11,178 nucleotides of DNA from a virus (taxonomy: Duplodnaviria > Heunggongvirae > Uroviricota > Caudoviricetes): the IMG/VR virus record IMGVR_UViG_2671180710_000027, one strand, 5' to 3'. The notes under the pieces were generated by a model. The model did not search any database, had not been told where the DNA came from, and was given only the letters and a program-made list of their open reading frames with translations. Made by a program: the position numbers and the translations under genes. Positions 1,121 through 11,178 of the stretch are shown here, piece after piece; position 1 is the first letter of the stretch; each line of letters begins with the position of its first letter.

Positions 1121-1206
1121 CTGCTGGTGGTGGGGGTCGAACCCACATAAACATATGGCCCGTTAGGGTTTATGCCGCTTTACCGATTAAGAGTACACCA
1201 TACAGC
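1121..1206 (-). other. Second, more degenerate tRNA-like sequence
   Basis: Shares the 24-bp 3' terminus with the first copy (plus strand 1017-1040 versus 1122-1145, one mismatch) and a T-arm GTGGG-TTCGACC-CCCAC. The 5' acceptor strand is disrupted (GCTG-TAT-GGTG) and the middle is AT-rich and diverged. Confidence 0.4.
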
Positions 1207-7116: not shown

Positions 7117-7405
7117 GGCTTACCTCCCCGGCCTGCTGGTCGTAACACTCCATCAGTTCGGCCATACAGCCAATGAGGGCAGGGGCTGTCTGTAGAAATC
7201 CGGCTAATTGGCAGATCTCGTCTCTGGAATAGGTGATGGGGTTTTCGCGTAACTGGCTTCCCTCCAGTGCCTTACCAACAAAGGCAATCCCCGCCAGTAA
7301 ATTCACTCTGTGCCAGTCGGCATCAACGCGCAGAATCCAGTGGCTTTCTTCGTCCGGCATACTGCTCATGGCGGCTTTCATTGACTCACGCAGACAATCA
7401 CGCAT
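7109..7405 (-). CDS. Hypothetical acidic protein (98 aa from ATG 7403-7405)
   Basis: The ORF-track start at 7435 is a TTG. The ATG at 7403-7405 sits in an ATGCGTGA overlap with the upstream stop and has GGGGG 6 nt upstream. Confidence 0.5.
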   Translation of the reverse strand: MRDCLRESMKAAMSSMPDEESHWILRVDADWHRVNLLAGIAFVGKALEGSQLRENPITYSRDEICQLAGFLQTAPALIGCMAELMECYDQQAGEVSHV

Positions 7406-7862
7406 GGCGCGCCCCCTGACGAATACGGGCGACAAAAATCATATGCGCGTGCGGTAGCTGCGCGCGTGCTTCGCGTTCTGTTGCCGCCGTGACGGTAAAG
7501 AGCGAGGTTTGTTTTTCCTGGCACTGCATAAAGCGCCAGACAAAGTAAGGGCGTGCGAATACAGCCATGTGAAAGGCTCCTATGTTTGAGGTAAGGAGTC
7601 TCGCTACTACGCTGCTAAACGGGGTGGCGAGACGTAACGGGGTTAGCAGACTGGCAACATAGAAACCAGCGAGCGCAAAGGCTCCCCCGTCACGCCCCGC
7701 CATAATGCGGGTATGGGTAGGTTTACGGACACAAAAAAACCGCATATCGGAATGTAAGCGGCTGTCCGCTATGTTATTCAGGCTGCTAAACCCGGTCACC
7801 ATGTGGGTGACTCCGGCATCATACAGCCCGAAAGAAGAGGCGATCAACATGTTTTTAAGCAT
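7398..7862 (-). CDS. Ash/Icd-like family protein (long form 154 aa; possible short form 7398-7568)
   Basis: C-terminal 56 aa (MAVFARPYFVWRFMQ...HMIFVARIRQGARHA) is paralogous to the Icd-like protein upstream. The long start at 7860-7862 overlaps the upstream stop (ATGCTTAA). An internal ATG at 7566-7568 has GGAG 8 nt upstream, so the true start is ambiguous. Confidence 0.5.
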   Translation of the reverse strand: MLKNMLIASSFGLYDAGVTHMVTGFSSLNNIADSRLHSDMRFFCVRKPTHTRIMAGRDGGAFALAGFYVASLLTPLRLATPFSSVVARLLTSNIGAFHMAVFARPYFVWRFMQCQEKQTSLFTVTAATEREARAQLPHAHMIFVARIRQGARHA

Positions 7863-8052
7863 GGCTCACCCCCTGAGCCGGAACGCGGCCAGCAAAAAGC
7901 AACACAAAATCACGCGCCAGCATACGGCGGGCGGTTGTTTCGTCGGGTGCGTTGACGGATTCGCGGTGTGGGCGGTCGTTCAGATCGGAACGGCGAACGG
8001 CCAGAAAGTGAAAGGTAAATTCAGGGTGTAACGGGGTTGGGGTCGTAGCCAT
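7855..8052 (-). CDS. Host cell division inhibitor Icd-like small protein (65 aa)
   Basis: MATTPTPLHPEFTFHFLAVRRSD...ARRMLARDFVLLFAGRVP matches the recalled Icd-like pattern. The ATG at 8050-8052 has AGGAGG 8 nt upstream. The 201-aa ORF-track version adds a Pro/Gly/Arg-rich N-terminal extension that I consider non-coding. Confidence 0.6.
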   Translation of the reverse strand: MATTPTPLHPEFTFHFLAVRRSDLNDRPHRESVNAPDETTARRMLARDFVLLFAGRVPAQGVSHA

Positions 8053-8481
8053 TCTGGCAGCCTCCTTTTGCAAATTTAAGGAGTCACCGCCTGAGTTTCC
8101 ACGCTCATAAGGGGCGGTGACGCTGGCGGGGGTGGAAATACCGGCGCAAAAGGAAACCGGCCAGCCTTTCGGCTGCCCCACCAGCGCCACCATAGATACA
8201 GTGCGGGCCTTGCCGCTGTTCATGGTTGCGCGATGGCACGACACAAAAAAAGACGCTGGGCGCGTCTGTGTCGCCTTTTGCTCATTAAACGGGTTTCCAC
8301 GCCCGGCTGGTGGATTTACACCAGCCGGGGAAATATAACGCCCACCAGCGATGGCAGGCAAGCAATATTTGCGGTTGCCGCCCATTCTGTGGGGCGTGTG
8401 GTGGTTGTTTTGGGCGTGAGAACGCCCCGGCCCTGTTGCGGGCCTTTCTGGCATTTTCATGATTAAAATTCTCTGACGGGG

Positions 8482-8688
8482 TTAATTGCGCGTGCTGGTC
8501 GTGCCTTTGCGGTCAGCGAGCCACTGGCGGATAGCGGAAACATCAAAGCGGCTTACGCCATCGCCCAGCTTATCCGGGCTGGGGAATTTACCTTTTTTAA
8601 CCCAGTTCCATAGCGTCGATTCGCTAATCTGAAAATGGTTTATCACCTGTGCCGGGCGCATATAGCCGGATTTGGGTAAGGTATCCAT
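8482..8688 (-). CDS. alpA: AlpA-family phage regulatory / excisionase-like HTH protein
   Basis: 68-aa ORF with an HTH (MRPAQVINHFQISESTLWNWVKKGKFPSP) followed by RFDVSAIRQWL, typical of AlpA/Xis-type proteins. AGAGG lies 9 nt upstream. Confidence 0.8.
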   Translation of the reverse strand: MDTLPKSGYMRPAQVINHFQISESTLWNWVKKGKFPSPDKLGDGVSRFDVSAIRQWLADRKGTTSTRN

Positions 8689-8739: not shown

Positions 8740-8773
8740 CAAGAAAAAGTAAAGGCGACTAAATTTAGTCGCC
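8740..8773 (-). terminator. Intrinsic terminator downstream of the orphan gene
   Basis: Perfect 20-bp palindrome GGCGACTAAATTTAGTCGCC (8754-8773), followed on the minus strand by TTTACTTTTTCTT. A T-run also follows on the plus strand, so it may act in both directions. Confidence 0.5.
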
Positions 8774-8857: not shown

Positions 8858-9811
8858 TTATCTTTTTGCTTTTGCGTTTCCGCCCAAAATTTTCCATTCA
8901 TTGGGTAAGCGTCTGGCATCAGATAATATTTTTGCTATTCGTCCCGCGTCAGGTGTTGGGGTGGGATTGCCATCCCAGAACAGATAACCGTGTTTCTCTA
9001 TGGCTTCGGCATGTGATTTAAGTGTCTTGCCAACATCTTTAGGGAAGTGATACGCCACGTACAGGGCAGCCGCGAGAACCTTTTCACGTTCCAGCGCGAA
9101 TCGCTCCACACCGCCGTGTATATCATGCTTTTCCTGATTCCTGTCATCTGTCGGTTGTTCTGTGCGCTGGTAGCCGGGCCTTTGTGCAAGTATTTTTTGC
9201 ATGACCATCATTTCTGAATCGGTAATGCGCAAATTCTTTTTTTCCGGGGCGTTTATCCGGCGTGAGCCGCCACGTGGTGTAAAGGTTGCTGTAACTTTGG
9301 ACAGTGAAGGGGTATCGGTGTACGGTTTTAATGTGAATGTGTCCTGTGCGTGAACGCGCGAGAACTCGGCGTAAGGTACAGTCCATAAGCCATACAGGAG
9401 AACATCCGATACAACCATAAGTTTCCCGTCATGTACCTGCGCGTCACTATGGTTGCTGTCAAAGTAGAACCCGGATTGTGAGTATTGATGGTAAACATTT
9501 CTCCAAATCAATATTGATTCAGGTTCGTTGTCATTGGGGAAAAGCCTGAGTTTCTCCCCTTCTTCCGGTTGTAGTAATTCAGGTGGGAAATAATCGTTTG
9601 TTGCTGGCGCTGAAATACTGGCAATGTTCCACGGCTTGGCCGGATATCCCCACTTGTCGTAATCCGTGTAGCTTTGGCGGTTTATGGAACTTTCCGGGCC
9701 GAAATCAAGTGCGATTTTTATTGTCCCTTTAGCCCATTCAGTCAGTATTTTTTTTTGAGTACACCCCAGTATGCTGGCGGCTGTATCAATAGGGTATGTG
9801 TTTTCATACAT
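8858..9811 (-). CDS. Hypothetical protein (317 aa), AT-rich cargo gene in the integrase-alpA slot
   Basis: Long uninterrupted ORF with ATG at 9809-9811. Composition is markedly more AT-rich than its neighbours. The N-terminus has an HTH-like stretch (IDTAASILGCTQKKILTEWAKG). No catalytic motif recognised. Confidence 0.6.
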   Translation of the reverse strand: MYENTYPIDTAASILGCTQKKILTEWAKGTIKIALDFGPESSINRQSYTDYDKWGYPAKPWNIASISAPATNDYFPPELLQPEEGEKLRLFPNDNEPESILIWRNVYHQYSQSGFYFDSNHSDAQVHDGKLMVVSDVLLYGLWTVPYAEFSRVHAQDTFTLKPYTDTPSLSKVTATFTPRGGSRRINAPEKKNLRITDSEMMVMQKILAQRPGYQRTEQPTDDRNQEKHDIHGGVERFALEREKVLAAALYVAYHFPKDVGKTLKSHAEAIEKHGYLFWDGNPTPTPDAGRIAKILSDARRLPNEWKILGGNAKAKR

Positions 9812-9906
9812 GGTTTACGTTACCTTTGACGCTACCTTAAAAATAAACCGGGGCAGGCGGTAAGGTTTCCCGCTTTTCGCGCCGTCGCGCTATCCCCGGT
9901 ATGTTT

Positions 9907-11178
9907 TTATTTTGCAATCGCTTTTGTGATGGGGGTTACGTTGTATTCATCCCCCTGTTCCAGAGCCACCAGCAGGTCGGCCCATAACTCCAGAGCGTGG
10001 CGGCGTTCATTGAAATACTGATGGCGGTTATAGATACCCTCAACGCCTTTAATTCGGTGGTTCAGGCAGCGTTCCGCCACTACAGGGTCTACCCCAAGCG
10101 CGGCAAGGTGAGTTCTGGCTGTGCGTCGGAAATCGTGAACGGTAAAACCCGGCACACCAGGCATTTCCCGGCGAACCTTAGCCAGCGCAACGGGCAGGGT
10201 GCTTTCCTGTATGTGTGGAATCATGCGCTGTTGCATTTTGCGGGCCGGAAGCACCCAGCGGCTACCGCCTGAAATGCTGTGTAATTCGCGCAACCATGCC
10301 ACCGCTGGTGGCGGTAGTGGGATATCAATGGCATCCCCGTTTTTAGCCCGTTCGGCAGGGAGTCGCCATACAGCACTATCTAAATCAAATTCATCCCACT
10401 GTGCGGCGCACAACTCCATTTTTCGGCAGCAAAGGCAAAGTATCAGTTTCATGGTGAGTTCATTCTCACGGCTGAATCCTTTAGCTGTGCGCATGGCCTG
10501 AAAAAAATGAATGAGTTCATCACGGGTTAGCCATCGGTCGCGGCTTTTTTCAGCCCCACCAGCATCTGATAACTCAAAAGCAGCGGCGGGGTTTGTTTCC
10601 AGTGCGTGGCGTTTGATGGCGTAGTCGAATATCCGTTTAGTCCATCGCAAAACATCATTGGCGACTGTTGGCGCTCCGCGGTCAATAATGCGCTGTAGCA
10701 TTGCGTCAATATGGCGCGGTTTAACGTCTTCGACTTTCAGGCTGCCAATCTGAGGGTTGATATCTTTGTCTATGCGGCGGCGGAGAATATCGGGATGTTT
10801 CCAGCGGGGTAGTATTTGCCGTTCGTAGTATTCGGCTGCCAGTTCTGACACGCGAAGGGCGTTTTTTTCTTCCTCAATCCGTGCCAGTGCCGCCGCTTTT
10901 CGGGCCTGCTTTTCTCCGGCCACGTCATGGCCCAGCGCAACACGGGCGGCCAGTTCTTTAACGGTGGCGCGGGCTTTACTTAGTGACAGGTCGGAATATG
11001 AGCCGATGTGCATAGCACGTTGTTTCCCGGCCATCCGGTAACGATAGCGCCAGAATGGGGCGTTATATTTTTCAGGGAAGCACAAATACAGGCCGTTACC
11101 ATCGGCGCGGGCATCAAAGCGTTCCCCGGCCTTTATCCACGCCTTTATCTGAATATCCGTTAACTTCGCCTTTGTCAT
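9907..11178 (-). CDS. int: Tyrosine site-specific integrase, P4 family
   Basis: 423-aa ORF whose N-terminus (MTKAKLTDIQIKAWIKAGERF...GNGLYLCF) resembles the P4-type arm-binding domain. The C-terminus carries the catalytic motifs HDFRRT and LNH...GIYNRHQY. The start codon is at the window edge. Confidence 0.9.
   Translation of the reverse strand: MTKAKLTDIQIKAWIKAGERFDARADGNGLYLCFPEKYNAPFWRYRYRMAGKQRAMHIGSYSDLSLSKARATVKELAARVALGHDVAGEKQARKAAALARIEEEKNALRVSELAAEYYERQILPRWKHPDILRRRIDKDINPQIGSLKVEDVKPRHIDAMLQRIIDRGAPTVANDVLRWTKRIFDYAIKRHALETNPAAAFELSDAGGAEKSRDRWLTRDELIHFFQAMRTAKGFSRENELTMKLILCLCCRKMELCAAQWDEFDLDSAVWRLPAERAKNGDAIDIPLPPPAVAWLRELHSISGGSRWVLPARKMQQRMIPHIQESTLPVALAKVRREMPGVPGFTVHDFRRTARTHLAALGVDPVVAERCLNHRIKGVEGIYNRHQYFNERRHALELWADLLVALEQGDEYNVTPITKAIAK

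Follow-up and report, generated by a model that had tools for sequence, protein, structure and literature searches.

In P1 and P4, the C4 antisense RNA is processed from a longer precursor by RNase P and other nucleases, and in P4 an immunity-dependent, Rho-dependent termination (timm) is relieved by translation. The RNA immunity system considered below is already known, its mechanism having been worked out for P4 and P1. According to one account, P4 transcripts that start at the promoter inside eta terminate early and yield CI, with Kil needing read-through; full-length eta is made solely from the upstream late promoter, is coupled to the alpA homologue and blocks termination, and eta translation from this upstream promoter lets transcripts escape immunity (PMC10111431). 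In P4-like prophages, IsrK corresponds to seqA and C4 to the CI RNA (PMC3632133, PMC4825925), and the seqA RNA is required for P4 immunity (PMC3632133). In the case of Gifsy-1, whose locus is homologous, the read-through mRNA has its first RBS structurally masked, the short IsrK is a trans-acting activator of its translation, and alternative conformers have been documented (PMC4825925). Moreover, C4 and isrK matches in Gram-negative PICIs have already been reported (PMC10111431).

The window considered here (the whole stretch of DNA analysed, 11,178 nt, from the virus record IMGVR_UViG_2671180710_000027) has its gene content entirely on the minus strand, including an integrase (9907-11178), a 317-aa ORF (8858-9811) and, directly upstream of the region under study, an alpA gene (8482..8688) encoding an AlpA/Vis-type HTH regulator (Pfam Phage_AlpA and HTH_17), whose product shares 29% identity with P4 orf88/Vis (E 3e-8). 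The alpA stop codon occupies 8482-8484 and the ATG of a small kil/icd-like gene 8050-8052, in agreement with the limits that the initial annotation of this DNA had set for a leader between both genes; the sole long ORF of the leader region on the gene strand lies at 7855-8460. On the 3' side of the kil/icd-like gene lie a second module, two small ORFs and then the replication genes, a toprim primase and a DUF927 helicase, both on the minus strand. A tRNA at 1017-1098 is called by Rfam (35 bits) and by PGAP; ARAGORN finds none in the window.

The 430-bp interval between alpA and kil is very probably a P4-type RNA immunity region. Indeed, the P4 immunity region is the closest known system, and every defining immunity feature that could be examined was found at this locus. 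The order is alpA/vis, then an eta gene enclosing promoter, seqA, CI, seqC and kil, and then replication genes; at the DNA level, 73.5% identity to NC_001609 8353-8676 extends over 52% of the leader, and P4 itself scores 60.8 bits for isrK and 74.9 bits for C4, in the same order and spacing. The promoter and the terminator align, the antisense loops pair on both sides of CI with the downstream site over the kil Shine-Dalgarno, and the long ORF has 201 codons here and 197 in P4. A regulation by RNA immunity or attenuation like that of P4 had been guessed previously, and by homology this guess was right, since both isrK and C4 also exceed their gathering scores. On the other hand, the specificity sequences differ (GUGGAAA/GCAAAAGG here, GUGAGAA/UUCACAGG in P4), the spacer from isrK to C4 is about 54 nt shorter here, and the eta-like start lies 21 nt past the alpA stop, whereas in P4 it abuts it. 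Furthermore, a second complete module is present here, together with the toprim and DUF927 pair, and sid, psu and delta are not annotated.

Across the whole island, PGAP reports Mor, a frameshifted PerC, a partial SSB, DUF927 and toprim; neither the capsid-size and helper-exploitation genes sid, psu and delta of P4-like satellites nor the alpha primase-helicase is among its calls. With sid, psu and delta missing from the annotation, the biology downstream may not be that of P4, and the island looks like a Gram-negative PICI-type satellite, not P4 proper. In this regard, the "Bro zone" of Gram-negative PICIs has a comparable layout, with int, alpA, a dynamic zone carrying C4/isrK in an eta/Bro-type gene, and primase, and the immunity RNAs described there present no essential difference from the module in the window (PMC10111431).

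Inside the long ORF, a candidate PLE-like sigma-70 promoter (8332..8361, minus strand; TTGCCT, 18-nt spacer, TATATT) was identified by consensus scan and alignment. The site aligns column for column with TTGCCT...TATAGT of P4 and with 14 other modules and, as judged from sequence, it has the P4-type location within the long ORF and upstream of the seqA equivalent. From its position, transcription is predicted to start near 8325, where the Rfam isrK model also begins. An IsrK/seqA-like small RNA follows (8246..8325, minus), matching Rfam RF01394 over its full length (model positions 1-77 of 77) with 62.6 bits against a gathering score of 50 (E 8e-13). This RNA comprises, in order, a 5' hairpin, a hairpin presenting the a1 site (8290-8305), a single-stranded b1 stretch and a terminator, and all three hairpins of the model are present in its centroid fold. 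The intrinsic terminator (8245..8267, minus), found by terminator scan and contained in the isrK model, has a 6-bp stem, a 5-nt loop and U7 (AGACGC-GCCCA-GCGTCT at 8251-8267, plus T7), and its helix is 89.6% paired across 16 modules. A match to Rfam c4-a1b1 (RF03163) at 8286-8338 (minus) reached 40.2 bits, below the gathering score of 46.7, as did P4 with 44.1 bits, while five P4-like E. coli islands scored 49-51. Sites a1 and b1 were both located here by complementarity.

The C4/CI-type antisense RNA (8110..8197, minus) is a full-length match to Rfam RF01695 with 82.3 bits (gathering score 45; E 2e-16), and it has an MFE of -51.5 kcal/mol (z -5.1) with a fold identical to the model, namely a closing stem and two hairpins. 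Two exposed segments, a' (the joint UUUCCAC, 8132-8138, minus) and b' (the 12-nt loop UUUCCUUUUGCG, 8145-8156, minus), are complementary to sites on the same transcript. The a' segment pairs over 7 nt with both a1 (GUGGAAA, 8294..8300, minus), its exact complement in the loop of the second IsrK hairpin, and a2 (GUGGAAA, 8096..8102, minus), which lies 3' of C4 as part of the seqC equivalent. Within the b' loop, the site CCUUUUGC is the exact complement, over 8 nt, of b1 (GCAAAAGG, 8274..8281, minus), and the loop forms 12 contiguous pairs, including GGAGG, with b2 (UGCAAAAGGAGG, 8061..8072, minus), a cognate duplex of -30.5 kcal/mol; b2 overlaps the Shine-Dalgarno of kil, which is the gene that comes next.

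Among related modules, the three-way complementarity of a'/a1/a2 (7 nt) and b'/b1/b2 (7-12 nt) was present in 15 of 15, which together display 6 different a and 13 different b sequences; in all 15, loop and target sites change jointly, and b2 runs into the GGAG/GAGG of the Shine-Dalgarno in 13. We consider this covarying complementarity of loop and targets to be the strongest evidence for a function of the predicted pairing. The gene whose ribosome-binding site is involved (7855..8052, minus) encodes a 65-aa kil/icd-like product behind a GGAGG Shine-Dalgarno, matches NCBIfam NF033153 (Icd-like, 73 bits) and aligns with P4 Kil; among the genes served by the internal promoter, it would be the first to be translated.

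The eta-like long ORF (7855..8460, minus; 201 codons) begins 21 nt after the alpA stop and takes in the promoter, the two RNA genes and the target sites, its last part being the nested kil, so that a long ORF next to alpA and in frame with kil is found here, which is the nested kil/eta arrangement of P4-type immunity. Its product is 44% identical (E 4e-34) to that of the 197-codon eta ORF of P4, read by translating the P4 sequence, an ORF that follows directly on vis/orf88 and has kil as its final part. The kil frame is free of stops through C4, isrK and promoter in 14 of 17 modules (99-261 codons), the other two frames being closed within 45 codons, and in 15 of 17 the isrK 5' end and the kil ATG are separated by a length divisible by 3, nine different lengths being represented. 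The modules without an open kil frame are one that is annotated as frameshifted and two from plasmids. No clear Shine-Dalgarno was found for the eta-like ORF, and in P4-like relatives the ORF overlaps the alpA stop.

Since even diverged relatives retain the ORF, open and in the same frame, its translation from transcripts that begin upstream is probable. The initial annotation had judged this Pro/Gly/Arg-rich extension of the kil frame to be non-coding, an opinion opposed by the match to P4 eta, the conserved open frame and the multiple-of-3 spacing. Similarly, its description of an untranslated leader is adequate for transcripts from the internal promoter but not for those coming from upstream, where translation of eta is probable, and the idea that the leader is transcribed from alpA is too simple, considering the PLE-like promoter within it. 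Apart from the 21-nt gap after the alpA stop, the window fits the P4 eta scheme, as far as its sequence goes.

Other known systems share part of this organization. The immI region of P1/P7 also has a C4 family RNA, upstream a1/b1 sites and a b2 site over the RBS of an Icd-like gene, and the leader is about 75% identical to the c4-icd regions of the P1-like phages D6, JL22 and RCS47; however, no antirepressor gene (ant) was found after icd here. A P1-like plasmid module (L008) displays the same complementarity, but it is stop-free for 6 codons and has no long eta-like ORF. In another relative (L002), antA/antB are located upstream of the module. Likewise, the Gifsy-1 IsrK locus (isrK, orf45/STnc1160, anrP) resembles the window in its three-hairpin sRNA with a leaky intrinsic terminator (PMC4825925) and in a stable downstream RNA that is thought to be made by processing; it differs in having an antirepressor gene downstream, where the window has the kil/icd-like gene and replication genes.

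A rival reading takes the leader for nothing more than an attenuator: the intrinsic terminator at 8251-8267 would stop transcripts arriving from alpA, AlpA would be a processive antiterminator that allows RNA polymerase to enter the replication genes, and the inverted repeat at 8302-8329 would be part of the attenuator. Such a function has been described for AlpA of Pseudomonas aeruginosa, and the window does have an AlpA-family gene directly upstream as well as a strong intrinsic terminator within the leader. Nevertheless, AlpA-dependent antitermination leaves the C4 RNA unexplained, along with the complementarity of a'/a1/a2 and b'/b1/b2 that covaries over 15 modules, the internal promoter aligned with PLE and the conserved long ORF; moreover, the P4 homologue Vis is annotated as excisionase and transcription regulator. 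We regard it as very unlikely to account for the region, although such antitermination could coexist with the RNA system instead of replacing it.

Another possibility is that the locus merely encodes an Ash/Icd-like protein of about 200 aa, with the hairpin and stems being incidental to a GC-rich coding sequence. In favor of this, the PGAP/RefSeq annotation of the locus is a 199-aa Icd-like CDS, the frame is conserved among modules, and Pfam Phage_ASH matches amino acids 42-148 (E 9.5e-27). This match, however, coincides exactly with the RNA-bearing segment, which extends from the -10 box to the targets and includes both RNAs, so that the conservation underlying the family may be largely that of the RNAs. 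Coding alone would not be expected to produce same-strand matches to two covariance models far in excess of their curated thresholds, helices maintained by changes in both arms and by G-U pairs, or loop-target covariation. Coding and RNA functions of P4 eta are known to overlap (PMC10111431); consequently, plain coding would be an incomplete description rather than a true alternative, and as a full account it is even less probable than antitermination by AlpA. The P4-type reading, in turn, exposes an annotation gap, since RefSeq lists an "Icd-like" or "ash family" protein and no ncRNA feature for this locus and for many homologues, and two curated RNA families are above threshold at a locus annotated as protein only.

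The inverted repeat that had drawn attention to the leader, a perfect hairpin at 8302..8329 (minus) with arms of 11 bp and a 6-nt loop (CCCGGCTGGTG-GATTTA-CACCAGCCGGG; arms 100% complementary), was confirmed exactly as claimed by an inverted-repeat scan. The window has no other perfect 11-bp hairpin with a loop of 3-8 nt, and at least one such hairpin occurred in 26 of 1000 dinucleotide-preserving shuffles of the window (mean 0.031), making a chance origin unlikely; folded as RNA, it has an energy of -23.8 kcal/mol (z = -5.6). The statement that no T-run follows holds for the bases right after the hairpin, but it overlooked the terminator with T7 located 35 nt downstream on the minus strand.

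A total of 16 IsrK-like modules were aligned, comprising both copies of the window, P4, E. albertii, Aeromonas rivuli and eleven E. coli modules from islands, prophages and plasmids. An AlpA search of genome contigs gave 3 loci, and the diversity was drawn from E. coli genome matches, P4 and one Aeromonas locus. In these 16 modules the conserved core corresponds to 8306-8325, with 7 bp and the loop UAAAUC, and is 92.9% paired; both sides have changed at 6 of 7 core pairs, G-U pairs are present (UG in 4 sequences at one pair), and the covariation was matched by none of 500 shuffles. In contrast, the outer 4 bp (8326-8329 / 8302-8305) are lineage-specific: 13 of 16 sequences do not form the pair 45-67, the 4-bp extension is missing even in the close E. 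albertii relative, and the 3' partners of the outer pairs are an invariant CGGG, which in the family model belongs to the following hairpin, the one displaying a1. A conserved structure of 11 bp was rejected on these grounds, the outer 4 pairs being lost and their 3' partners serving the a1 hairpin. Covariation across relatives, proposed beforehand as a check, was thus seen within the inner 7 bp, and the other 4 of the 11 are not conserved.

The hairpin thus combines a conserved part, the 7-bp stem-loop at the 5' end of the sRNA, with an extension peculiar to this lineage. Pairing kept through changes on both sides and with G-U pairs points to an RNA helix rather than a DNA operator. A dimeric protein such as AlpA/Vis binding the inverted repeat as DNA and repressing the internal promoter is the least probable of the explanations weighed, since, even though the palindrome spans the predicted +1 region (start near 8325) and goes here 4 bp beyond the RNA stem, probably upstream of the start, the arms vary freely in relatives while pairing is kept with G-U pairs occurring, and the extension is absent from that close E. 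albertii relative. Within the P4-type reading, the most likely role of the hairpin is to stabilise the 5' end and to determine the folding by which a1 becomes exposed. As for the outer 4 bp, they probably lie upstream of the predicted transcription start, and so their pairing could form solely in transcripts entering from alpA.

A second stem had been described with 8 bp at 8083-8116. It does exist and shows compensatory changes in relatives, but according to the inverted-repeat scan it has 9 bp (100% complementary) and a different end, pairing the 3' arm of the C4 closing stem (8113..8121, minus) with GGCGGUGAC (8083..8091, minus), a segment located between a2 and b2. Across 15 modules, pairing in this stem reaches 89.6%, with both sides changed at 5 of 9 pairs, while slid controls gave 25-59%. 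When the C4 5' arm is present the second stem is outside the MFE fold, in which segment 8083-8091 helps to sequester the kil Shine-Dalgarno. The second stem is therefore a conserved alternative to the C4 closing stem with a putative role; it might decide between C4 processing and use of the read-through transcript as kil mRNA.

Taken together with the known behavior of P4, these elements suggest the following mechanism. A constitutive PLE-like promoter (8332-8361, minus) would start transcription near 8325, and by analogy with P4 most transcripts would end at the 8251-8267 terminator, giving an IsrK/seqA-like RNA of about 80 nt; its 5' end would be the inner 7 bp of the hairpin, with a1 displayed in a loop and b1 carried along, as read from sequence and structure. 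Read-through RNA would hold C4/CI (8110-8197), which, as in P4 and P1, may be processed to a stable antisense RNA. With the promoter aligned to PLE inside the region, the main products would be this terminated sRNA and the processed antisense RNA. Pairing of a' and b' with a2 and b2 would cover the kil Shine-Dalgarno and leave kil untranslated, and the untranslated RNA would be terminated before the replication genes, which in P4 occurs in a Rho-dependent manner; a1 and b1 of the IsrK-like RNA are further potential partners of a' and b'. Whenever the alpA promoter fires, ribosomes would translate the eta-like ORF (8460 to 7855) across promoter, RNAs and targets, and such translation, considering the conservation of the ORF and the case of P4, would render the transcripts insensitive to immunity. 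Since seqA in P4 and IsrK in Gifsy-1 have different roles, the direction of the effect of the IsrK-like RNA here is uncertain. Recognising the module would explain how the replication genes are kept silent and which sequences determine the specificity of immunity, and it brings no new principle; the leads that it offers are small, namely the tandem of heteroimmune modules, the alternative helix with its covariation and the lack of an ncRNA entry in RefSeq.

As a last step of this mechanism, a coupled second module (7398-7862) with other a and b sequences would repeat the same logic. This second, heteroimmune module is contained in a 154-codon ORF (7398..7862, minus) and was recognised by Rfam, promoter scan, pairing sites and NF033153. 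The ATG of the ORF (7860-7862) overlaps the eta1 stop, the overlap at 7855-7862 being ATGCTTAA, which suggests that the two eta-like ORFs are translationally coupled. On the minus strand the module has a promoter-like site (7818-7847; promoter scan), an IsrK-like RNA (7733-7811; isrK 36.6 bits, below the gathering score of 50), a c4-a1b1 match (7775-7824; 29.2 bits, gathering score 46.7) and a C4 RNA (7620-7707) that reaches 74 bits, above the gathering score of 45, with z -5.7 and an MFE fold equal to the model. By complementarity to this C4, sites were assigned on the same strand to a1 (7783-7789), b1 (7769-7775), a2 (7612-7618) and b2 (7580-7586), and they are followed by icd2 (7398-7568, minus; 56 aa), an Icd-like gene matching NF033153 with 56 bits.

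Calculated duplex energies of the two C4 RNAs were -24 to -30.5 kcal/mol for cognate and -13 to -17 kcal/mol for cross combinations, so the two RNAs are predicted to be mutually orthogonal in pairing. The tandem modules could represent a two-lock gate on the replication operon, or immunity to two satellite families. A joint reading, in which tandem orthogonal modules act as such a gate or dual immunity and the second stem acts as a switch between C4 and kil, is speculative and, in our estimation, rather unlikely as a whole. No description of tandem heteroimmune modules was found in the passages of the literature consulted, those of PMC10111431 included.

Regarding distribution, sequences similar to the leader were present in 2742 of 5426 complete E. 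coli genomes. The exact two-module sequence occurred in 6 complete E. coli genomes, and the second type of module in 141 genomes, mostly after another Icd-like gene. Two C4 genes in tandem were also present in an unrelated island of the O43 strain RM10042.

Downstream of the RNA immunity region that lies between alpA and the kil/icd-like gene (module 1), a second complete immunity module was identified at 7398-7862 on the minus strand, comprising a promoter-like site, an IsrK-like RNA, a C4 RNA, a/b target sites (stretches complementary to exposed segments of the C4 antisense RNA), and an icd-like gene, with pairing sequences unlike those of module 1. The module is enclosed by a 154-codon ORF; the start codon (ATG) of this ORF and the stop codon of the first long ORF (the eta-like ORF, 7855-8460) overlap. 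Moreover, tandem immunity modules were found again in other E. coli islands. Consecutive ORFs of the operon share 8-nt overlaps on the minus strand, at 7855-7862 (ATGCTTAA) and 7398-7405 (ATGCGTGA), and this arrangement, as read from the sequence, suggests that translation is coupled from one gene to the next, beginning with the eta-like ORF and continuing into the downstream genes.

The Pfam family PF10554 (Phage_ASH) matched aa 42-148 of ORF 7855-8460 (window ~8017-8337), a match coinciding exactly with the segment that carries the -10 box, IsrK, C4, and the target sites. In this context, the Phage_ASH protein family may largely represent RNA-gene conservation as read in the eta frame. At the same segment, RefSeq presented only Icd-like or ash CDSs and no ncRNA features.

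Folding of the region 3' of C4 predicted a hairpin that would sequester the kil Shine-Dalgarno sequence (8056-8091, minus strand; GGCGGU-GA-CUCCUU ... AAGGAG-GCUGCC). The anti-Shine-Dalgarno motif CUCCUU was common to both modules of the window, E. albertii, one more related module (L007), and a P1-like plasmid, and was absent from P4-type modules in the same comparison. Furthermore, two neighbouring hairpins, both rich in GC and lacking U-runs (GGCCC-GCAACA-GGGCC and GGGGCG-UUCU-CACGCCCC-like) were located at 8412-8445 on the minus strand, between alpA and the internal promoter, within codons 1-41 of the eta-like ORF.

Evidently, the zone following alpA varies among relatives, since strain JNEC-KY203 carries an antA/antB antirepressor gene between alpA and module 1 (L002 3819-4655), and the Tenebrionibacter relative (L004) presented alpA and the int-alpA RNA, with neither C4 nor isrK matched by Rfam. 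On the other side of alpA, towards the 317-aa ORF, a perfect 8-bp palindrome (GGCGACTAAATTTAGTCGCC, 8754-8773), with T-runs beside it on each strand, resembles a bidirectional terminator in its sequence. Between this 317-aa ORF and the integrase gene, the int-alpA RNA motif (RF02996) was detected at 9835-9900 on the minus strand (Rfam 64 bits; gathering score 35.8), and Rfam also identified it in the E. albertii, Tenebrionibacter, Aeromonas, and KY203 relatives.

At 1017-1098 on the minus strand, a tRNA was called by Rfam (35 bits) and an 82-nt tRNA-Tyr is annotated by RefSeq; ARAGORN found no tRNA at these positions. The call adjoins a 17-nt stretch matching the tmRNA 3' end (1130-1146, minus strand), and together they may denote an attachment-site remnant marking the far end of the island.
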